IMG/VR virus record: IMGVR_UViG_2529292829_000008
Source: a virus
Lineage: Duplodnaviria; Heunggongvirae; Uroviricota; Caudoviricetes
Reading direction: 5' to 3' (one strand)
DNA: 25,283 bases
Made by a program: the position numbers and the translations under genes. Shown here piece after piece: positions 1 through 21,453 of the stretch. A model generated the notes under the pieces. That model ran no database searches. It had not been told where the DNA came from and worked only from the letters and a program-made list of their open reading frames with translations. The first letter of the stretch is position 1, and each line of letters begins with the position of its first letter.

Positions 1-1053
1 TTACGGGGTAATGCCAACCGCTGCCGCCACTTTGTCGCCACTTGGCAGCGTTGCCAGAGGATTGAAACGGAGCGCCGTTTCCAGATGATCCGGTGCCAGA
101 TGTGCGTAACGCATAGTCATTTTTATATCGTGGTGTCCGAGAATTTTTTGTAAGGCCAGAATGTTTCCACCCGACATCATGAAGTGCGCCGCAAACGTAT
201 GGCGCAGAACGTGTGTGAGTTGACCGCGAGGGAGCACGATAGACGTTTTTTCCATCACGGATAAAAATTGAAAATAGCAGTCTGTGAAGAAATTGAACCC
301 ATCAAGCGCCATGATCTCTTCATAAAGCTCTTTACTGATAGGGATGCTTCTGTTTTTCTTCCCCTTCGTTCTTACAAAGGTAATTCGGTATTTGGTCACC
401 TGTGAGCGGGTAAGATTTACGGCTTCACGCCAGCGTGCGCCTGTGCTTAAGCATATCTTAACTACTAGTGCCAGAATTGGGTCCTGACGTTTGCAATCAG
501 CCAGCAATTCAACAATCTGCTCATGAGTAAGCCATGCCATCTCTTTTTCTGCGATGGTGAATTTTCGCATGTTCTCCAGTGGATTCGGATACGACCATTC
601 GCCCAGGCGGGATAGTTCGCTAAAAACACTACTTAGATAGCTTTGCTCCAGGTTAATGGTGACCGGGCTTGCTCCTTTCTTCCATTTCTCGCTGAAGTAG
701 ATCTCACCTGTCAGGCGTTTATCTCGATAGTGGGCAAACATTTTAGAGGTTAGATCAGTTGCAAGGGGATTGCCCAGAGCGTCAACCATCAGCAGCAATT
801 TGTCATAGACATGCTGCCCGGCAGTCAGAGATTTACCATGTAGTTTGAACCATAGCTCAACCACGTCTTTCAGAGTTCGACGATCCACGGATTCACCCAG
901 CCAGGGCTTTGCTTCGGTTTCTTCCATCGTGTGACGCTCAAAAGCCAGAGCTTCGCCTTTGGTGGTGAATTGTTTACGCACACGACGTCCACTACGTCCG
1001 GCGGGGTAACATTCGCAAAGCCATTTTCCTGTGGTGAGTTTTCGTACTGCCAT
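1..1053 (-). CDS. int: Tyrosine site-specific integrase (P2 Int-like)
   Basis: ORF track 1..1131; N-terminus from Met27 (MAVRKLTTGKW...) aligns with the recalled P2 Int start; C-terminal ...HVLRHTFAAHFMMSGGNILALQKILGHHDIKMTMRYAHL carries the tyrosine-recombinase R..H-x-x-R..Y region; GGAGGG Shine-Dalgarno (SD) before the ATG at 1053. Confidence 0.9.
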   Translation of the reverse strand: MAVRKLTTGKWLCECYPAGRSGRRVRKQFTTKGEALAFERHTMEETEAKPWLGESVDRRTLKDVVELWFKLHGKSLTAGQHVYDKLLLMVDALGNPLATDLTSKMFAHYRDKRLTGEIYFSEKWKKGASPVTINLEQSYLSSVFSELSRLGEWSYPNPLENMRKFTIAEKEMAWLTHEQIVELLADCKRQDPILALVVKICLSTGARWREAVNLTRSQVTKYRITFVRTKGKKNRSIPISKELYEEIMALDGFNFFTDCYFQFLSVMEKTSIVLPRGQLTHVLRHTFAAHFMMSGGNILALQKILGHHDIKMTMRYAHLAPDHLETALRFNPLATLPSGDKVAAAVGITP

Positions 1054-1239
1054 AAAAAATGCCCTCCAATAGAGAGCATTTTTACTGTATGTATAACCAG
1101 TGTCAATGTATGAAATCCTGCGACCATACATCTCACTGAAGCCATAATGAAGTTGGCTATTTTTTGCTATGTGAGTATGTGACTTTTGCGGTTAGCCTGC
1201 GGCTCATTGTTATATTAGGCGCAGATATAAAAGCAAAAT

Positions 1240-1446: not shown

Positions 1447-2016
1447 TTACCTAACGTACTTAATTGTTAAACTTATAATTTTCCCAATTATTTCAACATC
1501 TCCTATCTTGCACTCGAAGGCTCTGTTTCCACCTTCAACGAAGATTCTTCCACCGGGTAAACGAGTAATGTCGCGGATTGTTATTTCGCCATCAATACTT
1601 ATTACCCATTTACCGTCACGTATATCATCAAATTCTTTATCACAAATAAATTCAGAATTGTTATCTGTGATGACAAAAGGTTTTTTAAACGTAGAGGGTA
1701 GAAATCCCTTATCAAAAATATAAAAACCGTCTTCACGCAAGGCACCATCAGATAATACATATTTAGCAACTTCCATAGTATTTGTATTACCTGAAGTTTG
1801 CTTTGAACCATGTCCGGTTGTGAGCCAATTAAGCGAGGTGCCCGTTTCAAGGGCGCACTGGATTACCCATTCTGCTGGGAATGAGTCACGCATGTAGCGT
1901 GTGGCGAGTGTACTTTTAGAGATTCCTAAATGATCGCACAACGCCTGTCGAGTTTTGAATCCATAAGCTTCTACCATGCGCTCTATAGCGCCTCGTCCGC
2001 CTTTCTCCAAATTCAT
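1447..2016 (-). CDS. cI: CI-type immunity repressor (phage 186 CI-like, HTH N-terminal domain)
   Basis: ORF 1447..2022 with likely ATG at 2016 preceded by GGAG; HTH-like segment ...QALCDHLGISKSTLATRYMRD...; sits opposite apl/cII as in 186. No LexA-like S24 Ser-Lys motif seen. Confidence 0.7.
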   Translation of the reverse strand: MNLEKGGRGAIERMVEAYGFKTRQALCDHLGISKSTLATRYMRDSFPAEWVIQCALETGTSLNWLTTGHGSKQTSGNTNTMEVAKYVLSDGALREDGFYIFDKGFLPSTFKKPFVITDNNSEFICDKEFDDIRDGKWVISIDGEITIRDITRLPGGRIFVEGGNRAFECKIGDVEIIGKIISLTIKYVR

Positions 2017-2040
2017 GGTCACTCCAAGTGAACTTTTATC

Positions 2041-3946: not shown

Positions 3947-4800
3947 GCACCATCCTGAAATGGGCGGGAAATAAACCCGCCATAATGTCCGAACTGAAAA
4001 AGCATCTTCCTGCTGGCCCGCGACTGGTTGAACCTTTCGCGGGTTCCTGTGCTGTGATGATGGAGACGGATTACCCCAGCTATCTTGTTGCGGATATTAA
4101 TCCTGATTTAATCAACCTCTATAAAAAGGTTGCTGCTGATTGTGAGGCGTTTATATCTCGTGCCAGAGCTTTATTTGAGGAAGCAAACAGGGAGGTGGCT
4201 TATTACAACATAAGGCAGGAGTTTAATTACTCCACTGAAATTACTGATTTCATGAAAGCGGTATATTTTCTGTATCTCAATCGTCATGGTTACCGTGGGT
4301 TATGTCGCTATAACAAGAGCGGGTATTTCAACATTCCCTACGGTAATTATAAAAATCCGTATTTCCCTGAAAAAGAAATTCGCGCATTTGCAGAGAAAGC
4401 CCAGCGAGCAACGTTTATCTGCGCCAGCTTTGATGAAACGCTGGCGATGCTGCAGGGGGGGGATGTGGTGTATTGCGATCCGCCTTATGACGGTACGTTT
4501 TCCGGTTATCACACTGACGGCTTCACTGAAGATGACCAGTATCACCTGGCATCCGTTCTTGAACATCGGTCATCAGAAGGACATCCCGTCATTGTTTCTA
4601 ACAGTGACACATCCCTGATCCGTTCGCTGTATCGCAATTTTACTCACCACTACATCAAGGCAAAACGCAGCATCGGTGTGGCAGCTGGTGATAGTAAATC
4701 TGCAACAGAAATCATTGCTGTTTCCGGGGCGCGCTGCTGGGTGGGATTTGATCCTTCGCGTGGCGTAGATAGTTCTGCTGTGTACGAGGTGCGTGTATGA
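3943..4800 (+). CDS. dam: DNA adenine methyltransferase, Dam-like (D12 class N6-A MTase)
   Basis: From ATG 3943 (GGAGG SD): KWAGNK near the N-terminus, FAGSCAV (motif I-like), [15 protein letters not shown], and catalytic DPPY ([10 protein letters not shown]); near-colinear with E. coli Dam as I recall it. Confidence 0.88.
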
Positions 4801-7211
4801 GTCATGACGATATGAGCAACTCTAGCGGCTTTAACGAGGCCGCTGCATCATTTTCATGGAACGGCCCGAAAAAGGCCATTAACCCTTATCTGGACCCGGC
4901 GGAAGTTGCGCCGGAGTCTGCACTTTCAAACCTGATCACTCTGTATGTTGCCGATAACGAGCAGGAACAACTGCGCCGCGAGGCACTGAGTGAGCAGGTC
5001 TGGGAGCGTTATTTCTTTAATGAATCCCGTGATCCTGTCCAGCGCGAAATGGAGCAGGATAAGCTCATTAGCCGGGCAAAGCTGGCGCATGAGCAGCAGC
5101 GTTTTAATCCAGACATGGTCATTCTGGCTGACGTCAACGCCCAGCCTTCCCATATCAGCAAGCCGCTGATGCAACGTATTGAATACTTCAGCAGCTTGGG
5201 CAGGCCAAAGGCTTATTCCCGCTATTTGCGTGAGACGATTAAGCCATGTCTGGAACGACTGGAGCATGTACGCGACAGTCAGCTATCCACTTCTTTTCGC
5301 TTTATGGCAAGCCATGAAGGGCTGGACGGCCTGCTGATCCTGCCTGAAATGAGTCAGGATCAGGTAAAACGCCTGTCCACCCTGGTAGCTGCGCATATGA
5401 GCATGTGCCTTGATGCCGCTTGTGGCGATTTATATGCCACCGATGACGTTAAGCCAGAAGAAATCCGCAAGACATGGGAAAAGGTGGCAGCGGAAACCCT
5501 GCGACTGGATGTTATCCCGCCTGCGTTTGAGCAACTCCGCCGGAAAAGAAACCGCCGTAAACCAGTGCCCTATGAACTCATTCCGGGCTCGCTGGCGCGT
5601 ATGCTGTGCGCCGACTGGTGGTATCGGAAATTGTGGAAGATGCGTTGCGAATGGCGGGAAGAGCAGTTGCGTGCTGTCTGCCTGGTCAGCAAAAAAGCAT
5701 CTCCCTATGTCAGCTATGAAGCTGTGATGCATAAACGTGAGCAGCGCCGTAAGTCGATGGAGTTTTTCCGTTCTCATGAACTGGTGAACGAAGACGGAGA
5801 CGCGCTGGATATGGAAGATGTGGTAAACGCCAGCTGCAGCAACCCGGCGCATCGCCGCAATGAGATGATGGCCTGTGTTAAAGGTCTGGAGCTTATCGCG
5901 GAAATGCGCGGTGACTGCGCCGTTTTCTACACTATTACCTGTCCGTCACGTTTCCATTCCACGCTCAATAACGGCAGACCCAACCCGACCTGGAAAAACG
6001 CGACGGTAAGACAAAGCAGCGATTATCTGGTCGGTATGTTTGCTGCATTTCGTAAGGCGATGCACAAAGCCGGGTTGCGCTGGTATGGCGTGCGGGTGGC
6101 TGAGCCGCATCACGACGGCACAGTTCACTGGCACCTGTTGTGTTTCATGCGCAAAAAAGACCGCCGCGCCATTACTGCATTGTTGCGTAAGTTTGCTATC
6201 CGTGAAGACCGCGAGGAGCTGGGCAATAACACGGGGCCGCGCTTTAAGTCTGAGCTGATTAACCCGCGCAAAGGAACGCCGACAAGCTACATAGCGAAAT
6301 ACATCAGTAAGAACATTGACGGGCGTGGTCTGGCTGGCGAGATCAGCAAGGAAACGGGTAAATCTCTTCGTGATAACGCTGAATACGTGAATGCCTGGGC
6401 GTCTTTGCATCGTGTTCAGCAATTCCGCTTCTTTGGTATTCCGGGGCGTCAGGCTTACCGTGAACTGCGATTGCTGGCTGGTCAGGCGGCAAGGCAGCAG
6501 GGTGACAAAAAAGCAGGTGTGCCGGTACTGGATAACCCGCGCCTTGATGCCATTCTGGCTGCTGCTGATGCTGGTTGTTTTGCCACCTATATCATGAAGC
6601 AGGGAGGTGTACTGGTTCCCCGTAAATATCACCTCATCAGAACCGCTTATGAAATTAACGAAGAGCCGACCGCCTATGGCGATCACGGTATTCGTATTTA
6701 TGGCATCTGGTCACCCATTGCAGAGGGCAAGATCTGCACTCATGCAGTGAAGTGGAAAATGGTTCGTAAGGCCGTTGACGTTCAGGAGGCGGCAGCCGAC
6801 CAGGGCGCTTGCGCCCCTTGGACTCGTGGCAATAACTGTCCCCTTGCTGAAAATTTGAACCAACAAGGGAAAGACAAATCAGCTGATGGGGACTCCAGAA
6901 CGGATATTACCCGTATGAATGACAAGGAGTTGCACGATTACCTGCACAGTATGAGCAAAAAAGAGCGCCGGGAACTGGCTGCAAGGTTACGCCAAGTGAA
7001 ACCGAAACGGCGTAAAGACTACAAACAGCGAATTACAGACCATCAGCGACAGCAGCTCGTCTATGAACTGAAGTCCAGGGGATTTGATGGCAGCGAGAAA
7101 GAAGTCGATTTGCTCCTTCGCGGCGGCAGTATTCCGTCAGGAGCAGGCCTGCGTATCTTCTATCGGAACCAGCGTCTGAAGGAAGATGATAAGTGGCGGA
7201 ACCTGTATTAA
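4797..7211 (+). CDS. A: Replication initiation endonuclease (P2 gpA-type rolling-circle initiator)
   Basis: 804 aa; HUH motif ([10 protein letters not shown]) and paired active-site tyrosines ([12 protein letters not shown]), as in P2 gpA; start overlaps the dam stop. Confidence 0.9.
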
Positions 7212-7363: not shown

Positions 7364-7552
7364 ATGCAGGACTATTTTTTGGAGTCTTTGAAGCTTCAGC
7401 GCATTGATTTTTTTCTTAAGCTTGTAGCGGCTAGTGAGTGTAGTGATGAAGAGAAGGGGCTGGCTCTGCAGTGGGTTTCTGAATTGACTGATGAACTTAT
7501 GGCAAAAATCAGAAGCCACGAATACAACCGCTCAATGGATATCATCAGCTGA
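7364..7552 (+). CDS. Small hypothetical protein, first gene of the LexA-boxed operon (possible Tum-like antirepressor component)
   Basis: 62-aa ORF with strong AGGAGGA SD; immediately downstream of the LexA box and upstream of the DinI-like gene. Confidence 0.4.
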   Translation: MQDYFLESLKLQRIDFFLKLVAASECSDEEKGLALQWVSELTDELMAKIRSHEYNRSMDIIS

Positions 7553-7562
7553 GGTGACTTTT

Positions 7563-7796
7563 ATGCGCATTGAAATAATGATCGATAAAGAGCAGAAGAT
7601 TAGCCAGTCTACCCTGGACGCCCTTGAATCCGAGCTTTACCGCAATCTGCGCCCCCTGTATCCCAAAACGGTAATTCGCATTCGCAAAGGTAGTTCTAAC
7701 GGTGTGGAACTAACCGGACTGCAACTGGATGAAGAAAGAAAACAAGTGATGAAAATTATGCAGAAGGTGTGGGAGGACGACAGCTGGCTGCATTAA
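7563..7796 (+). CDS. dinI: DinI-family protein
   Basis: From ATG 7563 (GAGGTGA SD): MRIEIMIDKEQKISQSTLDALESELYRNLRPLYP...VMKIMQKVWEDDSWLH, resembling E. coli DinI (MRIEVTIAK...ILQETWE...) in length and motifs. Confidence 0.7.
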   Translation: MRIEIMIDKEQKISQSTLDALESELYRNLRPLYPKTVIRIRKGSSNGVELTGLQLDEERKQVMKIMQKVWEDDSWLH

Positions 7797-7988
7797 GAAA
7801 CGTTGCCCCCAGGAGGATTCATTCTGATGGGGGCTAGTTTGGGCAATGAGTGAAATAAGGCGTAAGGTGGGCGGTTATTTTGATAAGTGATCGTCCGCTT
7901 TGTGTCAGAAGCAGAAGTGGGAGTGTCTGAGACTCTCTAAAAGTTGATGATTCACTTACAAAACCATTTTCCTGATGAATGCTTACAC

Positions 7989-8324
7989 TTACGAATGATC
8001 ATTCTGTTTAGTCTTCATGAGAAAATCCCGAATCTTTGCCAAGTTTGAATTTTCGGGGATTGAATCCATGTACGGATCACGCTCAAACACTAATTGCTCA
8101 GATTCAACGAAAGCCTGCCACTCTACTGGGTCTAGCTCAAATCCCATTGCTGTCATATCACTTTCATCTTCCCCCTCGATCCAGTGGACTAAATAAAACA
8201 ATTCATCATCAGGAGAATCATCCTCACCATCAACAATATCAACATCGGTTACAGTGATACGTAGGGTGGGATCGATTTTTGAGACATAAATTCCTAACTG
8301 TGGTATAGGGGGAATATTGTTCAT
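7989..8324 (-). CDS. Highly acidic hypothetical protein (111 aa)
   Basis: ATG with AGGAG SD; roughly 26 Asp/Glu versus about 8 basic residues; AT-rich; located beside cos. Confidence 0.5.
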   Translation of the reverse strand: MNNIPPIPQLGIYVSKIDPTLRITVTDVDIVDGEDDSPDDELFYLVHWIEGEDESDMTAMGFELDPVEWQAFVESEQLVFERDPYMDSIPENSNLAKIRDFLMKTKQNDHS

Positions 8325-8703
8325 GGAAACTCCTTTTATTGGTGTTTGCTATTTGAATAAAAATACGCCAAACAGAGTGTTAACTGTGAATATGGAAAGA
8401 ATCGTTGTAAGTACCCCGCTTAGGTGTCCCATTCTATTTTAGAGGTTCTCGTGCATATGGATTATGTTATCTGAAAGCTAACTTCCGCTTCCCGTTCACA
8501 GCGAACATTCATCTTTGTAAACCCGTATGATCCGTTTTTCAAGTGGCCATTCAGATACGGATTTTCACTTCCTTGACAGTGCATGACTATGCTGCATGAA
8601 ATCGCATGATCGATTGAGGATCGTCTTTGCTCAGATCCGCCAGAACTGGCGGGCTTTTGCTCATGTCATGCATGTGCATGAAAACCACTGCATAAAGCGG
8701 GCA

Positions 8704-8722
8704 GGCGTGGCGGGGATACGAG
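8704..8722. other. Candidate cos site (P2/186-type cohesive end, cosN)
   Basis: GGCGTGGCGGGGATACGAG: the first 13 nt match the 19-nt cohesive ends of 186/P2 as I recall them (GGCGTGGCGGGGAAAGCAT / GGCGAGGCGGGGAAAGCAC); lies in a 475-bp non-coding region between the replication and packaging modules. Confidence 0.55.
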
Positions 8723-8799
8723 CGCGCGCATTGATTTCAAAAGATGAAATCAAGTGGTACGATAAGTAGGATTACTACCAATTCTCAAAGGGATGTCTC

Positions 8800-10497
8800 A
8801 TGCATAGAATTGTTAAAGCTCATCTTGATAACTTCGTGAAAAGTCACGGTATTGAAAATCATCAAGAGGACACGCAGTTCGAGCTATTTTGTAATAAAGC
8901 TTTGCTGTCTTCTCGTATAAGTATGGATTATGAAATTGACGATGTAACAACCGGGGCTGGTGATGATGGCATGGATGGTGTTGCCATCATAATTGATGAA
9001 GAATTGTGTATATCTTCTGAAGATGCTACTTCAATATTTTCCTCATTACGTAAAAATCATGATGTTGATATTGTTTTCATTCAATCAAAGCGTAGTGAGT
9101 CTTTTGATTTAGGTGATTTTTTAAAGTTTAAAGCTTCCGTTTTTAGATTTATAGAGGATTCTCCTTACTTATGTGTGGATGAAATTCAAAAAAATGCAAG
9201 GGAAGTTTTTGATGTCATAATAAAAAATGTACCTAAGATAAGAGGTGGGCGACCAACTTTTACTGCTAAATATGTTGCAACTGGTTTATATAAAAAACCT
9301 AAAGAGTTAGAGAATGCTCGGAAGTTATTTGCAAAAGAAATTGACGAGTTGGGGTATTTCTGTAATGTTAGCGTTGAGTTTGTTGATCGTGATGAATTAA
9401 CACGTACTTGGATTGATACTTATTCAGTTGTCAATGCTGAATTGCCATTATTTAGTAATGCACCACTTCCCAAAATTAATGGTATAGAAGAAGCTTATCT
9501 TGCTGTCGTTAAAGCAAAGGATTTTGTTGGTAATTTATTGATGACGGACGAGGGGTCTCTCCGTAATCATGTTTTTGTTGAGAACGTCAGGGCGTTCTTG
9601 GGAATTGATAATCCTGTTAACGCATCGATTGCTGAGACAATTAAAAATAAAGATGCCGCTTCACGATTTCCTGTTTTAAATAATGGAATAACAATTGTTA
9701 GTCCGGATGTAAAACTTCAAGGGAGTATTTTACATCTAGAAAATTTTCAGATAGTTAATGGCTGTCAGACATCAAATGTGCTTTACGAATGCCGCGATTC
9801 CTTAGATGATACGATGATGGTTAACTTGAAAGTCGTAGAGACATTAAACGAAGATGTTTTTTCAGAATTGGTTCGAGCGACTAACAGTCAGACTAAAGTT
9901 GATGAGACTCAGTTCTATTCTCTTCGTCCAATAATAAAGAAAGTAGAAGCGTACTTTGATACTTATGAAGGGCAGGATGGTCGTTTATATTTAGAAAGAC
10001 GTGAAAGACAATTTATCGGTAGAGATATACCTGCAGTTAGAGTATTTTCAGTTCATATGGCAGCTAAATGTGTAGCAGCTATGTTCTTCCGTCGGCCAGA
10101 TCTTTCATATAGATACCCTAAAAAAATGTATGAATTGTTGGCTGAGAAAATATTTTCTAATGATACCAAGGAGATTGTATTTTATTCAGCATGTTTAACA
10201 TTATATAGATTACACTTACTTACTTCTAATGCTGATATTCCACAAAATATCAGGAAGTACAAATGGCATTTAATGGCGGTAGTTGGTGCTTTAATTGCCG
10301 GAAAGGATGTGCCTAATTTTGGATCTAAGAAAATGGATGCGTATTGTAATAAAATCATCACTGAAATGACAAAGCATGGTGATAAAATAAAAGCTACTTT
10401 CCAGAAGGCTGTTGATATTGTTTTGTCAATTGATGATATCACTGATGATAGAATGAAAAGGCAAGCTATTTTAGAGGAAATGCTTGCCAAGATTTAA
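8800..10497 (+). CDS. Low-GC cargo protein, candidate AIPR-like abortive-infection / defence protein
   Basis: 565-aa ORF, much more AT-rich than the backbone; sits between cos and the portal gene; contains ...FPVLNNGITIVSPDV...ENFQIVNGCQTSNVLYE... (DNA about 9751-9774), which I recall as resembling the conserved NGxQT core of the AIPR family. ORF call is solid; family assignment is tentative. Confidence 0.55.
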   Translation: MHRIVKAHLDNFVKSHGIENHQEDTQFELFCNKALLSSRISMDYEIDDVTTGAGDDGMDGVAIIIDEELCISSEDATSIFSSLRKNHDVDIVFIQSKRSESFDLGDFLKFKASVFRFIEDSPYLCVDEIQKNAREVFDVIIKNVPKIRGGRPTFTAKYVATGLYKKPKELENARKLFAKEIDELGYFCNVSVEFVDRDELTRTWIDTYSVVNAELPLFSNAPLPKINGIEEAYLAVVKAKDFVGNLLMTDEGSLRNHVFVENVRAFLGIDNPVNASIAETIKNKDAASRFPVLNNGITIVSPDVKLQGSILHLENFQIVNGCQTSNVLYECRDSLDDTMMVNLKVVETLNEDVFSELVRATNSQTKVDETQFYSLRPIIKKVEAYFDTYEGQDGRLYLERRERQFIGRDIPAVRVFSVHMAAKCVAAMFFRRPDLSYRYPKKMYELLAEKIFSNDTKEIVFYSACLTLYRLHLLTSNADIPQNIRKYKWHLMAVVGALIAGKDVPNFGSKKMDAYCNKIITEMTKHGDKIKATFQKAVDIVLSIDDITDDRMKRQAILEEMLAKI

Positions 10498-10584: not shown

Positions 10585-11619
10585 TTAAGCTAACTCAAGG
10601 CTATATGTATTGAATTTAATAATGTCATCTTCTACCCACTCATTAATTTCTTTGATTCTTTCCTGTAAGGGGGTTAATTCGTTACGGACGAATACCTTGC
10701 TGGCTTTTTCAATATCGCCAAATCCACCAGTGTTTTGTGGAATAATGCCCATCATCTGCGGAGGAACTCGATGTGCTGCCATCATGTCATCGCGACTGAC
10801 ATTTTTGATATTCAGAAACTCATCCTTCGCCGCGACTTCTGACAACGGGATGATCTGAAGCCCGTCCTTTTTGCCGTTAGGCGAGTACATAAACAAATTG
10901 CGGAAGTTGCCTGGACCTTTGGCACTTTTCATCGCGTTGCGGAGGTTGTTTACATCTTCCTGGTTTTGCGCGGCGTCGGTCATGTACATGATGAAGCCTG
11001 CATGACTGCCGTTAATGTAATACTTCCGGCGGAACAGCGTGGCGGACTCGTTGAGCAGGGCTGACGGAATGACAGAAAGATAGCCGGGCAGGCCGTAGAT
11101 TTCTTGATTAATATCCGGCTCCATCAGGTGAAAAATGCTGCCTTTCGTGAACTGATACGGCTGCGTGGTCATGCCGTATTGCACAAACCAGTAGGTATCC
11201 AGGTCTAACCCGCGTCGGGGGTATTTTGCCAGCGCAGGCTCAAGGGCGATAACTTCACCGAATCGGTTCGTGCGTTTCTCCAGGTAGGCGTTACCAAATA
11301 CCAGATAGTCCTGCACAAAACGCGAAAAAGCCTGCTGGCTGAGCAGCGGGGGGGGGATGTAGGTACTGGTCAGAATGTTGCATTTCACCGCAATTGGTGA
11401 ACTGTGATGCACGGCGGCGCGGAAGGTGCGCGCCAGTCCGTCAAAGCTTACTGGCGGCTCATACCAGCGATCTGTCTGTAAGCATTCCACATAGTCCAGC
11501 AGTTCGCGGCGGTCCAGAACAGGAACGGGATCACCGAAGCTGAATGCTTCGGCTGTAGTCTGGCTTTTATGCTGAATCTGGGTCGTCGCCGCAGCGCGCT
11601 TCTTCTTACTCTTTCCCAT
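10585..11619 (-). CDS. Q: Portal protein (P2 gpQ-like)
   Basis: 344 aa, same length as P2 gpQ; ...SFDGLARTFRAAVHHSSPIAVKCNIL...FRRKYYINGSHAGFIMYMTDAA... is colinear with my recollection of gpQ. Confidence 0.92.
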   Translation of the reverse strand: MGKSKKKRAAATTQIQHKSQTTAEAFSFGDPVPVLDRRELLDYVECLQTDRWYEPPVSFDGLARTFRAAVHHSSPIAVKCNILTSTYIPPPLLSQQAFSRFVQDYLVFGNAYLEKRTNRFGEVIALEPALAKYPRRGLDLDTYWFVQYGMTTQPYQFTKGSIFHLMEPDINQEIYGLPGYLSVIPSALLNESATLFRRKYYINGSHAGFIMYMTDAAQNQEDVNNLRNAMKSAKGPGNFRNLFMYSPNGKKDGLQIIPLSEVAAKDEFLNIKNVSRDDMMAAHRVPPQMMGIIPQNTGGFGDIEKASKVFVRNELTPLQERIKEINEWVEDDIIKFNTYSLELA

Positions 11620-13385
11620 TAAAAAATCTCCACAATATTGCTGGTATTGGCGGATTCGCCCTGCAGCGGTTCGTTAAACAATGCGTGCATCGTTGCCCAG
11701 GCCAGATCGGCATGGCTGGCTTCTTCGCTGCGGCTGGCTTCATAGGTCGGGCGGTTGCCGCTAGCGGTGGTGGCCCGACGGATTGCCATAAAGGACTGCG
11801 CTATGTCGGTGTGCCCGGCGTCAAACTCCAGGCGGCGGTGGCTAATAATGTCGTAGGCCTTGAGTACCAGGGCGTTTTTAACGTTGGGATTGTAGACAAA
11901 CTCCCGGACGGCAGGAAAGAACGCTTTCACGTTCTCGTAAACCCCGTGGCCGACGCCAGTTGAGTCGATGCCGATGTATGTCACGTTGTACTGTTCGGTC
12001 AGTTTTTTGATGGCGTCAGCCTGGGCGCGGAAGTCCATCCCGCGCCACTGGTGACGTTCAAGAATGCGAAACTTGCCGCCCGGCACGGCTGGCGGTGCCA
12101 CCACCACGCATCCAGCGCTGTCGCCGTTTTGTGTACCTTTTGCCGGGTCATAACCGATCCACACTTCGCGCCAGCCAAACGGGCGTAGCGCCAGTGCATG
12201 AAAGTCGGTCCAGACTTCCCAGCTGTCCACCATGCACGCCTGCAGCTCGCTGAGCGGGAAGACGGACGCGAGATCGTCCACGAACTCACACATCAGCAGG
12301 TTCTGGTATTCGTCCGGGCTGTACTCCATGCGCAACTGGTCGAGATCGAACAGGTTACATCCGCCGCGCACCGCATCTTCCACGGTGACTATCTGGCGGT
12401 ATTGCCCGTCTGCGCACAGCAGGCCGGGGGCCAGATTGTTGTGGGACAGGTCGATGTCCACCTTATCGGCTTTGTTGCGCCCACGGTTGAACAGCGCACC
12501 GGACCAGAACGGATAAGCACTGTGGGTCAGGCTGGATGGTGTGGAAAAATAGGTCTGTCGCCATTTCTTGTGAATAGCCATACCGGAAGCTACTTTGCGC
12601 AGCTCCTGGAATTTCGGTATCCAGAAATATTCATCCAGATACAGGTTGCCGTGGTAACTCTGGGCAGTGCGGGCATTGGTGCCGAGGAAGTAAAGCGTGG
12701 CCCCGTTAGGAAGCACCATCGGATCGCCTTTCAGCTCCACCTCCACTTCTTTGGCGAAGTCGATGATGTACTGCTTAAAGACGTGGGCCTGAGCCTTGCT
12801 GGCGGAAAGGAAAATCTGGTTACGCCCGGTTAGCAGGGCGTCAATCAGGGCTTCACGGGCAAAATAGAAGGTCGCGCCGATCTGGCGTGACTTCAGCAGG
12901 TTGCGGATGCGGTTGGTTTTTCCGGCTTCCCACCAGTGGCGCTGGTAGTTGAACATGGAGGAATGGAAGATTTCTTCCAGCTTCTCAATCTGTTCATCGG
13001 TGAAAACGTTCTTTTCCGGCTGACGGCGCGGGCCTTTGTTGCGGTTGGCGACGTTAGGGTTTAAGTCGGCTTCGTTGCCGCCATTGTTAAACTTGCCGAT
13101 GCGCGCGTGGCGCTCCGACTGGCGCGCCAGCAGGTCAATCTCTTTGAAATCTTTCCCTTCTTTGTGCTCCTTCATAATGAGCTGGCAGTAGCGGGCGGCG
13201 GTGGTGAGCTGCATCTGATCCAGCGGCCCATAGTCACCCCACTTGTCGCGTTTCTTCCAGCTGTGAACGGTTGCAACTTTCTCGCCCAGCATTTCAGCAA
13301 TGCGGGCTACGCGATATCCCTGAAAGTACAGCAGCATGGCCTGCCGACGGGGATCGAGATCTGCGGGTGTCAGTGTGGTGTTCAT
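11619..13385 (-). CDS. P: Terminase large (ATPase) subunit (P2 gpP-like)
   Basis: 588-aa ORF directly upstream of and overlapping the portal gene start; length and position match P2 gpP. Confidence 0.9.
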   Translation of the reverse strand: MNTTLTPADLDPRRQAMLLYFQGYRVARIAEMLGEKVATVHSWKKRDKWGDYGPLDQMQLTTAARYCQLIMKEHKEGKDFKEIDLLARQSERHARIGKFNNGGNEADLNPNVANRNKGPRRQPEKNVFTDEQIEKLEEIFHSSMFNYQRHWWEAGKTNRIRNLLKSRQIGATFYFAREALIDALLTGRNQIFLSASKAQAHVFKQYIIDFAKEVEVELKGDPMVLPNGATLYFLGTNARTAQSYHGNLYLDEYFWIPKFQELRKVASGMAIHKKWRQTYFSTPSSLTHSAYPFWSGALFNRGRNKADKVDIDLSHNNLAPGLLCADGQYRQIVTVEDAVRGGCNLFDLDQLRMEYSPDEYQNLLMCEFVDDLASVFPLSELQACMVDSWEVWTDFHALALRPFGWREVWIGYDPAKGTQNGDSAGCVVVAPPAVPGGKFRILERHQWRGMDFRAQADAIKKLTEQYNVTYIGIDSTGVGHGVYENVKAFFPAVREFVYNPNVKNALVLKAYDIISHRRLEFDAGHTDIAQSFMAIRRATTASGNRPTYEASRSEEASHADLAWATMHALFNEPLQGESANTSNIVEIF

Positions 13386-18502: not shown

Positions 18503-18896
18503 AGCAGTGCCTTATGTCCGCAATAACCCGGACAAACTGCATCTGTTTGTGGATAACGGTTCGCTGGTTGCCACCGGGGCCAGCTCCATGTCATGGGAGT
18601 ACCGTTATACCCTCAACGTGGTGATTGAGGATTTCAGCGGCGACCAGAATCTGCTGATGGCTCCCGTGTTGCTGTGGCTCAGAGAGAACCAGCCGGACGC
18701 CATCAACAACCCGGAGCTGCGCGAAAAACTGTTCACCTTTGAAGTGGATATTCTGCGCAATGACGTGTGTGATATCAGCCTGAATCTGCAGCTGACAGAG
18801 CGCGTACTGGTCAGCACTGACGGCACTGTGTCCAGTGTTGAAGCTGTAGCGGAACCCGATGAACCTGAAGAAATGTGGACGGTGAAACGTGGATGA
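18465..18896 (+). CDS. R: Tail completion protein R (P2 gpR-like)
   Basis: ORF 18444..18896; alignment with P2 gpR (...SLRRALTDAV...FVDNGS...YTLNV...PVLAWLRENQPD...) suggests the GTG at 18465 after AGGAGCG; the ATG at 18444 is the alternative start. Confidence 0.8.
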   Translation: MNKPQSLRHALNKAVPYVRNNPDKLHLFVDNGSLVATGASSMSWEYRYTLNVVIEDFSGDQNLLMAPVLLWLRENQPDAINNPELREKLFTFEVDILRNDVCDISLNLQLTERVLVSTDGTVSSVEAVAEPDEPEEMWTVKRG

Positions 18897-19338
18897 ACTG
18901 CAGAAGGTGGACGACTGGCTGAGTGCCTTGCTGGCGAATCTGGAGCCAGCCGCAAGAAGCCGCATGATGCGCCAGCTGGCGCAGGAACTGCGCCGGACAC
19001 AGCAGCAGAATATCAGGATGCAGCGCAACCCTGACGGCAGCAGCTATGAACCGCGACGGGTAACAGCACGCAGTAAAAAAGGCCGTATCAAACGTCAGAT
19101 GTTTGCAAAGCTGCGCACCACAAAATACCTGAAAACTGCCGCCAGCGCGGATTCTGCCAGCGTACAGTTTGAAGGTAAGGTACAGCGCATTGCCCGCGTT
19201 CACCATTACGGCCTGCGTGATCGCGTCAGTCGAAAAGGACCGGAGGTCCGCTATGCAGAGCGCCGCTTGCTGGGTTATAGTAATAATAGTTATCTAATCG
19301 TTAGTGATTTACTAATGAAATGGCTAACGCATCGTTAG
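18889..19338 (+). CDS. S: Tail completion / virion morphogenesis protein S (P2 gpS-like), C-terminus altered at the cargo junction
   Basis: 149-aa ORF (GTG start overlapping the R stop) with ...RVHHYGLRDRVSRKGPEVRYAERRLLG...; the last ~20 codons are AT-rich, consistent with replacement by the adjacent insertion. Confidence 0.8.
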   Translation: MDELQKVDDWLSALLANLEPAARSRMMRQLAQELRRTQQQNIRMQRNPDGSSYEPRRVTARSKKGRIKRQMFAKLRTTKYLKTAASADSASVQFEGKVQRIARVHHYGLRDRVSRKGPEVRYAERRLLGYSNNSYLIVSDLLMKWLTHR

Positions 19339-19349
19339 CCATTACGAGA

Positions 19350-20795
19350 TTAATGAGTTTTAAGTGCCTCTGTTAAAGATTTTCGATGATGTTCCCAAAA
19401 GGCAAAATCATTTACGTTTGAACTAAACCTCAAATGCTCTTCAGAATATATTGTTTCACGGTGATCGCATCCAAGAAGACATAGAATTAATCTGGTTAGA
19501 TATATTGTTAAGTGTTCACAAGCAACTGCAATGTTTATCAAGTTGTCACTTGGTATAATTACACCATGTATAATTATATTTCTGATTTCAGAAAGTCCTA
19601 GCTTACCAGATTCATTAAATAATGGCCATAAGTCATGAGTATGGATTAAATGTTCTTTAAGAAATTCTTGTGTGGCATCTTTTAATGATATTCTATTCAG
19701 TTCTCCTAGTTTGCTTTTTATTTTTCCTCTAGTTGTTGAATCTTTGATAACGTCCTTGGTGATGACTCTTTCAATTGTTTGTCTTAATGATTTAAACTCG
19801 CTTTCACATAGAATGAAGGTCGTATTGTTTTTTTCTTTATGAGTTAAGATAATAGATTCAAAAGATTGGAAAAGTGAAAGGTATCGAGACTCAAGATATT
19901 GGTTTGATGCATTGAGGACATTAATGGCTAATCGGATGTTCTGTCTGTAATGGGATGACAAATATGTGTGAAACATATTTTCAATATTTTCTTTGGCTTG
20001 TGATGGCATCATTAAGTGTTCTTTTTTGGTATCCTTAATAGGATTTTTTATCCTACAGCGAAAAACTGTATATACACCATCATTAGATTTTAGGTTCAAG
20101 TAACGACAAACTACTTTGTTACTATTGATAAATGATAAGATATCATTAAATGCGTCAATTTTGTCAATGTAGTTGTTTCTTACATCATCAATGGTTAAAT
20201 TAGAATTGTTGGGCTTTATTTTTAGGATTTGTTTTGTGCTGATTTCAAATTTTTCATTGCGTTCTAGTTTTAATTCGATATCTAATTTTATATCTTCGTC
20301 ATTGTTAAGTTTAACAATAATAGACTCTGGCTTTGTAAGAGTGATGTTACCATTCGAAGATAAATTGTACTGAATGTTAGGGGAAAGTAGTTGATGGTCA
20401 CTGTTGTAGAATGTTATTTCCGTATCAGGCGTATTATGTGCTTTATTATTTATAATGACTTCATTGGGAATGATGTTAAATGTATAGTATTGAGTTTTTC
20501 CTGAGTGACGGTCGACGATGTTTTCTATTCTACAATCGATTAGTTTTATCACTGAGCGAATATCACCATTTACATAATGAGTGCAAAATTCAATGTCTAA
20601 ATTATTTTTTCCATAAAGCTTGATGGTTTTTTTACTATAGGTCTTTATCTGAATCCTATCCCAGCTTTCTTTATTGTTGACAGTAACATTGCAAGTCATT
20701 TTGATACTGTTTTCTGTTTTTATATTATCGTCATTAATAGTAATTGGGTTGTGGTCATAAGAAAAAGTAACTTTAATTGATTCATACGTGTTCAC
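19350..20795 (-). CDS. Low-GC cargo protein with C-terminal HEPN-like R-N-x3-H motif (candidate abortive-infection RNase)
   Basis: 481-aa ORF, antisense to the flanking tail genes; GTG start with perfect AAGGAG SD; very AT-rich; N/K/I-rich N-terminal two-thirds; C-terminal region contains SEIRNIIIHG (DNA 19566-19583). ORF call is solid; function is a hypothesis. Confidence 0.6.
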   Translation of the reverse strand: MNTYESIKVTFSYDHNPITINDDNIKTENSIKMTCNVTVNNKESWDRIQIKTYSKKTIKLYGKNNLDIEFCTHYVNGDIRSVIKLIDCRIENIVDRHSGKTQYYTFNIIPNEVIINNKAHNTPDTEITFYNSDHQLLSPNIQYNLSSNGNITLTKPESIIVKLNNDEDIKLDIELKLERNEKFEISTKQILKIKPNNSNLTIDDVRNNYIDKIDAFNDILSFINSNKVVCRYLNLKSNDGVYTVFRCRIKNPIKDTKKEHLMMPSQAKENIENMFHTYLSSHYRQNIRLAINVLNASNQYLESRYLSLFQSFESIILTHKEKNNTTFILCESEFKSLRQTIERVITKDVIKDSTTRGKIKSKLGELNRISLKDATQEFLKEHLIHTHDLWPLFNESGKLGLSEIRNIIIHGVIIPSDNLINIAVACEHLTIYLTRLILCLLGCDHRETIYSEEHLRFSSNVNDFAFWEHHRKSLTEALKTH

Positions 20796-20874: not shown

Positions 20875-21453
20875 ATGAACGCACAACTGACCGAAATCAT
20901 GCGCCTTATCACCAACCTGATCCGCACAGGGGTAGTTACCGAAGTGGACAGGGAAAACTGGCTTTGCCGGGTGAAAACGGGCGAGCTTGAAACCAACTGG
21001 ATTAACTGGCTGACGCTGCGTGCCGGGAATGCCCGCACATGGTGGCGACCATCGGAAGGTGAGCAGGTGGTGCTGCTGAGTCTGGGCGGAAATCTGGAAA
21101 CCGCCTTTGCGCTGCCCGCTGTCTATTCGAATCAGTTCGCACCACCGTCGACGTCGGCGGACGCCTGCGTGACAGAACATCCTGACGGTGGCTGGTTTGA
21201 ATACGAACCCGCCACCGGGCGCTGGTATGTCAGGGGCATCAAATCAATGGTCATTGAGGCCGCTGACAACATCACCATGAAAACCAGTGAGTTTGTACTG
21301 GAGGCTGACCGCACGTGCATTAACAGCGAAGTGGTGATCAATGGTGGCGTTACCCAGGGCGGCGGAGCGATGAGTTCTAACGGGATTGTGGTTGATGCGC
21401 ATCAGCATACTGGCGTCCTGAAAGGCGGCGATACAACCGGAGGCCCGGTATGA
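20875..21453 (+). CDS. V: Baseplate spike / assembly protein V (P2 gpV-like)
   Basis: 192 aa; MNAQLTEIMRLITNLIRTGVVTEVD...WLTLRAGNARTWWRPSEGEQVVLLSLGG...SSNGIVVDAHQHTG... is colinear with P2 gpV. Confidence 0.9.
   Translation: MNAQLTEIMRLITNLIRTGVVTEVDRENWLCRVKTGELETNWINWLTLRAGNARTWWRPSEGEQVVLLSLGGNLETAFALPAVYSNQFAPPSTSADACVTEHPDGGWFEYEPATGRWYVRGIKSMVIEAADNITMKTSEFVLEADRTCINSEVVINGGVTQGGGAMSSNGIVVDAHQHTGVLKGGDTTGGPV

Follow-up and report, generated by a model that had tools for sequence, protein, structure and literature searches.

The cos-proximal region of the prophage

The window, by which we mean the whole stretch of 25,283 nucleotides analysed here, is a P2-family (186/Fels-2-like) E. 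coli prophage. Between the early operon and the cohesive-end site it contains a 111-aa gene of the family DUF8087, flanked by remnants of two other genes. The relevant features are the following:

1-1131, minus strand: integrase
1447-2022, minus strand: 186-type CI
2142-2363: Apl
4797-7211, plus strand: gpA, end of the early operon
7364-7552, plus strand: 62-aa ORF (phrog_698, a family without known function)
7563-7796, plus strand: DinI/Tum-like gene, the last early-operon gene (Pfam DinI, 1.4e-22)
7952-8002, minus strand: integrase 5′-end remnant of 16 codons, MIIRKCKHSSGKWFCK and stop, overlapping the DUF8087 stop (intact form, MTVRKLPSGKWLSECY...)
7953-8502, minus strand: orphan module of ~0.5 kb (blastn extents and alignment of eight orphan copies)
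7989-8324, minus strand: DUF8087 coding sequence, 111 aa (ORF call, PHROG match, dN/dS and AlphaFold2 model)
8330-8335, minus strand: Shine-Dalgarno sequence AAGGAG, 5 nt upstream of the DUF8087 ATG, read from the sequence
8349-8432, minus strand: remnant of a Flk_N-like C-terminal transmembrane tail, 27 codons, MGHLSGVLTTILSIFTVNTLFGVFLFK and stop (intact C-termini, ...GILLGAVLFK and stop)
8461-8466, minus strand: candidate -10 element, hexamer CATAAT (6/8 orphan copies, CATACT in the other two)
8580-8730, no strand: conserved cos region, a 150-bp block kept in 85 phage records
8704-8722, no strand: cos cohesive-end site, GGCGTGGCGGGGATACGAG
8800-10497, plus strand: 565-aa AbiU/AIPR single-gene defence cargo (PADLOC AbiU, 4.4e-112; Pfam AIPR, 1.5e-43)
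10585-11619, minus strand: portal Q
11619-13385, minus strand: terminase P

The first 13 bases of the window cos are identical to the start of the phage 186 cos (13/13), and positions 8695-8716, which comprise the 9 bases before cos and those 13, match the P2 cosR region at 20/22 positions. The 150-bp cos region is present in P2-like phages with or without DUF8087. A regulatory RNA or terminator was also considered for this block and rejected, as Rfam returned nothing, the fold z-score was -0.08 and the block is the cos region. The cos site is located ~380 bp upstream of the DUF8087 ATG, in agreement with the original prediction, which had placed the gene beside cos and in an orientation opposite to its neighbours; DUF8087 (minus strand) indeed runs towards the DinI-like gene and away from the 565-aa gene, both of which are on the plus strand.

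The cos site separates the DUF8087 gene from the AbiU gene, and therefore the two are found at opposite ends of the virion DNA. In the virion chromosome DUF8087 is the final gene at the right end and is transcribed inward, while AbiU is located at the left end, in the cos-Q interval. Because cos sits between these genes, the published 'gpA-gpQ hotspot' is really two slots flanking cos. The right-virion-end slot is occupied by DUF8087 here, by tin/old in P2 and by STM2726 in Fels-2; the left-virion-end slot contains AbiU, retrons and others, which swap independently of the right-end slot. This hotspot was catalogued by Rousset et al. (2022), whose Table S5A lists the window protein only as 'hypothetical' and who did not include it among the systems they cloned.

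Two further observations concern the same prophage. The DinI/Tum-like gene has two possible starts, at 7491 (101 aa) or 7563 (77 aa, the RefSeq-annotated form), and the frame from 7491 overlaps the preceding 62-aa ORF. A 481-aa ORF of low GC content (~0.30; 19350-20795, minus strand) lies between the tail genes at 18889-19338 and 20875-21453, at a position of the P2 'orf30' type, which points to a second cargo or candidate defence slot.

The 111-aa protein and the DUF8087 family

The ORF starts with ATG and encodes 26 acidic (D+E) and 7 basic (K+R) residues, giving a net charge of -19 and a pI of 4.05; the strongly acidic 111-aa protein that was originally described, including its quoted sequence, is thus exact. 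Its AT-richness was likewise confirmed: the gene has a GC content of 0.405, the window one of 0.496 and the phage structural genes values of ~0.55-0.60. The AAGGAG form of the ribosome-binding site is found only in the window and in copy L059, and the AAAGG core of the Shine-Dalgarno sequence is present in 7/8 aligned orphan copies. We recovered 61 close homologues across Enterobacterales and 84 at the profile level, all with a precomputed PF26332 assignment. Pairwise dN/dS values were 0.07-0.33, including orphan copies in different genera and unrelated genomic contexts, and dS reached ~0.4 among orphan copies in at least 6 genera and ~1.0-1.1 relative to the Xenorhabdus copy. The net charge of 98 family members had a median of -16 (range -22 to -6). 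Given the Shine-Dalgarno site, the homologues, the dN/dS values and the family-wide acidity, the DUF8087 ORF is a genuine gene and more than a chance frame. Purifying selection prevails overall, yet certain orphan copies are in decay, as seen in the frameshifted or N-terminally truncated variants P0039, P0041 and P0054 from Enterobacteriaceae contigs, one of which is fused to an integrase stub.

Judged by sequence matching, the window protein is a full-length member of DUF8087 (PF26332) and PHROG 17127, both families without assigned function. The match to phrog_17127 (E 2e-70) covered residues 1-111/111, and the protein is named 'DUF8087 domain-containing protein' by RefSeq and PGAP (WP_001059831.1). 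When 1.84 billion representatives were searched exhaustively with the profile, only 34 clusters were found, indicating that the family is small and coherent. The window protein matched no NCBIfam model and, at E ≤ 1, no family in a Pfam scan whose model set lacks PF26332. The family profile retrieved no PDB chain by sequence at E ≤ 10, and neither the window protein nor one distant member matched any defence or candidate-defence model of PADLOC-DB 2.0 at E ≤ 1. When 50,697 deposited phage genomes, P2 included, were searched by tblastn with the 111-aa protein, none matched. Neither DUF8087 nor WP_001059831 is mentioned in the main text of any paper. The gene itself is therefore already catalogued as a DUF, and what is new is its independence from AbiU, its origin in a lysogeny operon, its spread as a 0.5-kb module and its association with defence slots.

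Structure prediction with AlphaFold2 on 39 sequences gave a model with a pLDDT of 72, and an alignment of 67 sequences that included distant members raised this to 84.5 (pTM 0.71) with unchanged topology. The model has predicted strands at residues 11-15, 22-31, 43-50, 61-64 and 78-82 and predicted helices at 66-76, 84-87 (short) and 94-109 (C-terminal), so that the predicted DUF8087 fold is a small beta-barrel with helices. Invariant or near-invariant residues in the family are P8, G11, Y13, V25, V28, V46, D56, E63, W69 and L78, and the long acidic loop (residues 32-41) differs in length between relatives, several of which lack it. No catalytic motif or known domain was found in DUF8087.

The original prediction had likened the composition of the protein to that of DNA mimics such as Ocr and ArdA. 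Ocr (T7 gp0.3) and ArdA have in common with DUF8087 their size range, a very low pI and carriage on mobile elements. However, the window protein did not match the Ocr profile PF08684 (Pfam, E ≤ 1) and showed no sequence match to ArdA or ArdB-KlcA (PF07275/PF03230), and the ancestral operon of DUF8087 is lysogenic and not early or leading. Ocr is an all-helical, banana-shaped dimer with a DNA-like array of carboxylates, and ArdA is an elongated three-domain protein; with five beta-strands and three helices, the predicted DUF8087 fold is unrelated to either. Fold searches of BFVD and the PDB were run with the pLDDT-72 model, which has the same topology as the pLDDT-84.5 model, and returned no significant match, nothing Ocr-like and not CarS. 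The CarS antirepressor of Myxococcus xanthus is an acidic DNA-mimicking binder with SH3 topology (PMC2926617). Mimics of the CarS type appear to share both fold class and charge with DUF8087, and the model is compatible with this one known class of beta-barrel DNA mimics.

Origin in a lysogeny operon and spread as a 0.5-kb module

Intact operons with DUF8087 were found in Klebsiella (K. aerogenes), Enterobacter kobei, Buttiauxella and several IMG/VR prophage contigs. They consist of four genes on one strand, in the order HTH repressor (~130 aa), Flk_N-like tail-anchored protein (~210 aa, PF27202/phrog_5825), DUF8087 and integrase, with gaps of 10-30 nt and the DUF8087 stop overlapping the integrase start. 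DUF8087 is located between Flk_N and int in 8/79 Flk_N-like loci of IMG/VR; alternative occupants of this gap are a DUF2511 secreted protein (41 loci), BRCT and BRCT/WYL proteins, lipoprotein-like ORFs and others. Since only 8 of the 79 gaps contain DUF8087, the gap is a cargo slot expressed with the repressor, in which DUF8087 is one interchangeable occupant. The idea that DUF8087 and the Flk_N-like membrane protein form an obligate pair was rejected on the same count and because of the many alternative cargos.

Compared to these operons, the orphan copies retain stubs of both neighbours. The Flk_N remnant in the window ends 24 nt before the DUF8087 ATG, a spacing that matches the intact operons, and its frame is confirmed by the read-through variant P0003. 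The 27 codons are kept in most orphan copies (e.g., L021, L023, L024 and L059), and the mini-ORF is probably a relic because it lacks a start codon in Morganella (L031) and has a broken frame in L063; the same two losses led us to discard it as a small hydrophobic toxin partner. Longer integrase remnants are found downstream of DUF8087 in L021-24, L031, L059-61 and L065. The fragment moved without the native operon promoter. A scan for consensus sigma-70 promoters upstream of DUF8087 found none, the CATAAT hexamer included, and the block around this hexamer is largely invariant in the eight-copy alignment. Together, these results show that DUF8087 arose in the lysogeny-operon cargo slot of other P2-like prophages and was excised as a ~0.5-kb fragment with stubs of its neighbours.

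A separate observation concerns the other genes of native operons L025, L026, L067 and L070, in which a conserved motif is common to the HTH repressor, at its C-terminus (...GQGNRVAGRDYNENKK), and the Flk_N-like protein, at its N-terminus (...NRxAGRDFHEGN...). Residues ~35-110 of the Flk_N-like protein also weakly resemble Ant-type antirepressor PHROGs (E ~1e-7). These similarities hint at a possible pair of repressor and membrane-anchored antirepressor in the native lysogeny operons.

The orphan module of the window has 84-90% nucleotide identity to copies in Serratia, Symbiopectobacterium, Lonsdalea, Proteus, Morganella and an unrelated myovirus. Its left boundary is constant in all contexts and its right ends are nested truncations; the same left boundary in different contexts indicates that the truncated fragment itself spread. 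Copies are found in a Serratia chromosomal islet, in a Proteus T6SS/IrmA island and beside a Xenorhabdus filamentous prophage. The copy in a Morganella island adjoins a type II Mokosh gene (MkoC, score 1497), and this island carries elsewhere an ArdB/KlcA (PF03230) gene that is unrelated to DUF8087. The copy in the unrelated myovirus adjoins a PDC-S45-like gene, that in an Edwardsiella prophage adjoins a DUF4365-TPR gene, and that in a Providencia P2-like prophage is located between ogr and an AAA_15/21 pair. An immunity protein of a toxin-antitoxin or polymorphic-toxin pair was looked for in the same neighbourhoods, and no neighbour is conserved across DUF8087 contexts, the Flk_N-like gene lying upstream in the native operon only, where DUF8087 is optional; the Proteus copy has a T6SS PLD/PAAR cluster ~1.5 kb away and lies within the same 0.5-kb module. 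In copies L059-L061 a (GGAAGC)n microsatellite (~5760-5800) is found exactly at the left (upstream) boundary of the module, and the longer right arm of these copies contains a 71-aa integrase stub, a 127-aa ORF (phrog_26730) and a GNAT acetyltransferase. The distribution of the module shows that this fragment was inserted anew into accessory or defence slots on several mobile elements; in the window, DUF8087 is the last gene before cosR.

More distant relatives (30-40% identity, 94-101 aa) have a basic N-terminal extension, MGQAKLRGSKEERIAQSKA, and are hosted by small int/HTH_17/Phage_GPA integrative elements of Nitrosospira-like bacteria and metagenome contigs (L072, L075-L079). In them, too, DUF8087 adjoins integrase and variable cargo. 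The gene set of these elements comprises integrase, DUF8087, an HTH_17 protein, a P2 gpA-type Rep and variable cargo (SRA-HNH, TIR-NLR-like, DEAD helicase, PEP-CTERM protein).

Within E. coli, DUF8087 is present in 132/5,426 complete genomes (~2.4%), and we examined the cargo across cos in a sample of 46 E. coli loci. The protein is 96-100% identical to the window protein in all 46, and identical in most, and the DinI-like gene is 100% identical across all E. coli loci with DUF8087. In contrast to this constancy, the cargo beside DUF8087 falls into at least 20 unrelated clusters and is missing in three loci. These clusters include three GmrSD types, several retron RTs, ShosTA, PIN_12, a Schlafen-type ATPase, SIR2+AAA, PDC-S06, bSEFIR, AbiL, an OLD-like AAA_21, an ORC/Cdc6-like protein and AbiU itself, which occurs in 2/46 loci. 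E2348/69, BL21(DE3)/BLR(DE3) and many other E. coli strains encode the identical protein at this position, separated from the DinI-like gene by 192 nt. DUF8087 is beside a DprA-type ShosTA system in E2348/69, while in the defective P2-like prophage of BL21(DE3)/BLR(DE3) (L007/L003) it lies ~470 bp from the retron Ec86 effector/RT pair. Conversely, Fels-2 carries a 93%-identical AbiU without DUF8087, and an unrelated gene replaces the 111-aa ORF.

These results indicate that DUF8087 is functionally independent of the neighbouring AbiU, and a partnership of the two was rejected because the cargo swaps while DUF8087 stays identical and Fels-2 has AbiU alone. The proposed partnership with the 565-aa cargo gene, and with it the expected co-occurrence with homologues of that gene, is therefore not borne out, there being no conserved AbiU/AIPR association. 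The earlier interpretation as a whole is partly supported, in its account of the acidity and the position at cos; the AbiU partnership did not hold, and no match to Ocr or ArdA in sequence or fold was found. The AbiU gene can be treated as a self-contained system either way. Together, the data show that DUF8087 recurrently adjoins defence systems, yet is independent of them, and that it is an autonomous, selectively maintained, non-enzymatic cargo gene ('moron') of temperate elements.

Possible roles of DUF8087

The arrangement at the right virion end resembles that of phage P2, where the old-tin lysogenic-conversion transcript has the same position and the same inward orientation from the cosR end. 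Like DUF8087, P2 tin is the first accessory gene past the early replication operon, is on the opposite strand and is non-essential cargo. However, Tin has 253 aa compared to the 111 aa of DUF8087, and the two proteins are not homologous, as tblastn with P2 included detected nothing. P2 Tin is said, in work of Mosig et al. from 1997, to exclude by poisoning T4 gp32.

We tentatively favour, with a probability of about 0.3, that DUF8087 is a lysogen-expressed acidic decoy targeting a nucleic-acid-binding protein made by a competing phage or satellite, causing a Tin-like exclusion. The protein would be expressed from the prophage and act alone, without enzymatic activity. As a stoichiometric decoy, it would present the conserved negative surface of a compact beta-barrel, with a patch formed by D56...E63-L-D-P-x-E-W69 and the acidic loops as the putative binding surface, and would sequester a basic nucleic-acid-binding protein of the competitor, leading to exclusion in the manner of P2 Tin. 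A competing phage is favoured as the target because the slot-mates at both locations are lysogenic-conversion or defence genes and the ancestral operon is lysogenic. Against the decoy, a protein of 111 aa with neither membrane anchor nor enzyme domain is unusual as a stand-alone defence, and an anti-defence gene or a regulator would be just as likely to lie near defence genes. The frameshifted copies, the negative promoter scan and the lack of a PADLOC match likewise count against it. The proposed acidic decoy mechanism rests on composition and predicted fold class, and some relatives do without the longest acidic loop.

The same acidity could instead serve the establishment of the element in a new host, if the protein blocked a DNA-targeting immune protein of the host (type I R-M, BREX, RecBCD-like or Gabija-like). 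An anti-defence mimic of this kind would fit an extreme acidity that is conserved across the family, a spread among unrelated mobile elements that include the island with ArdB/KlcA, and the absence of a tie to any single defence neighbour; small acidic beta-barrel mimics are known, CarS among them. The gene is moreover located at the cos-proximal right virion end and read inward, and in P2/186 the right end of the virion DNA is reported as the tail-attached end. However, neither in sequence nor in fold does DUF8087 resemble Ocr, ArdA, ArdB or a solved mimic, its ancestral home is a repressor-integrase operon with slot-mates of the lysogenic-conversion type and not an early or leading region, none of the 50,697 deposited phage genomes contains it by tblastn, and the acidic loop is variable or missing in relatives. 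We regard this role as a live rival, somewhat less probable than the decoy. A regulatory role in the biology of its own element, which we consider quite unlikely, is suggested by the translational coupling of DUF8087 to int in the native operons. As a regulator of this type, it may act as a decoy for a Cox/Apl/AlpA-type HTH protein or for the arm-binding domain of the integrase, thereby stabilising lysogeny, or as an antagonist of H-NS or a similar nucleoid protein, relieving the silencing of AT-rich cargo. Acidic DNA mimics that bind H-NS or HU, such as DMP12 and T4 Arn, are known, and the neighbours of DUF8087 are AT-rich. In the distant small elements (L072, L075-L079), DUF8087 is divergent from the HTH_17-Rep operon, at the place expected for an immunity gene, and no conventional repressor gene is visible. 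One of these elements (L079) nevertheless has a disrupted copy, DUF8087 is optional in the Flk_N-int slot with unrelated cargo taking its place, and the orphan copies are under purifying selection without an integrase, a matching Cox/Apl partner or a common neighbour.

Two further explanations were considered. The stubs of former neighbours on both flanks, the loss of the native promoter and the frameshifts in some copies would all be expected of a functionless relic that hitch-hikes with the debris of a degraded lysogeny operon. The dN/dS values among orphan copies in at least 6 genera disfavour such a relic and make it very improbable, and the frame is intact with the Shine-Dalgarno core preserved across independent contexts, while the common left boundary places the spread of the fragment after its truncation. 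A dedicated partner of the 565-aa AbiU gene, whether antitoxin, immunity protein or sensor, can be given next to no credence: what suggested it was the adjacency and divergent orientation of the two genes in this window, but AbiU is a single-gene system that in Fels-2 does without DUF8087, the cargo across the 46 loci is unrelated or missing, and cos lies between both genes. Returning to the decoy for a nucleic-acid-binding protein, a broader formulation is that DUF8087 founds a new family of stand-alone, non-enzymatic conflict proteins that mimic nucleic acids and neutralise a widely conserved DNA-binding protein, be it a host immune effector, for a broad anti-defence effect, or a replication or recombination protein of a rival phage, for exclusion by a single protein. 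Such a compact acidic beta-barrel would travel as a self-sufficient 0.5-kb module, found in defence islands as well as at the cos end of P2-like genomes. We consider this reading doubtful.

The P2 cos-proximal hotspot is among the best-mined sources of new anti-phage systems, and the carriers of DUF8087 include the workhorse strains BL21(DE3)/BLR(DE3) and the EPEC prototype E2348/69. Were DUF8087 to act in exclusion or as an anti-defence decoy, the repertoire of phage-host conflict would gain a new non-enzymatic protein family, and phage and retron experiments in E. coli B would contain a hidden variable; if it is merely a maintained accessory gene, the finding is ordinary. As the identical gene lies beside retron Ec86 in BL21(DE3), a nucleic-acid-mimicking conflict protein of the kind outlined above could also modulate assays of the retron or of other defences in E. 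coli B. The defective prophage of E. coli B also contains a truncated gpA fused to a CII-like fragment.
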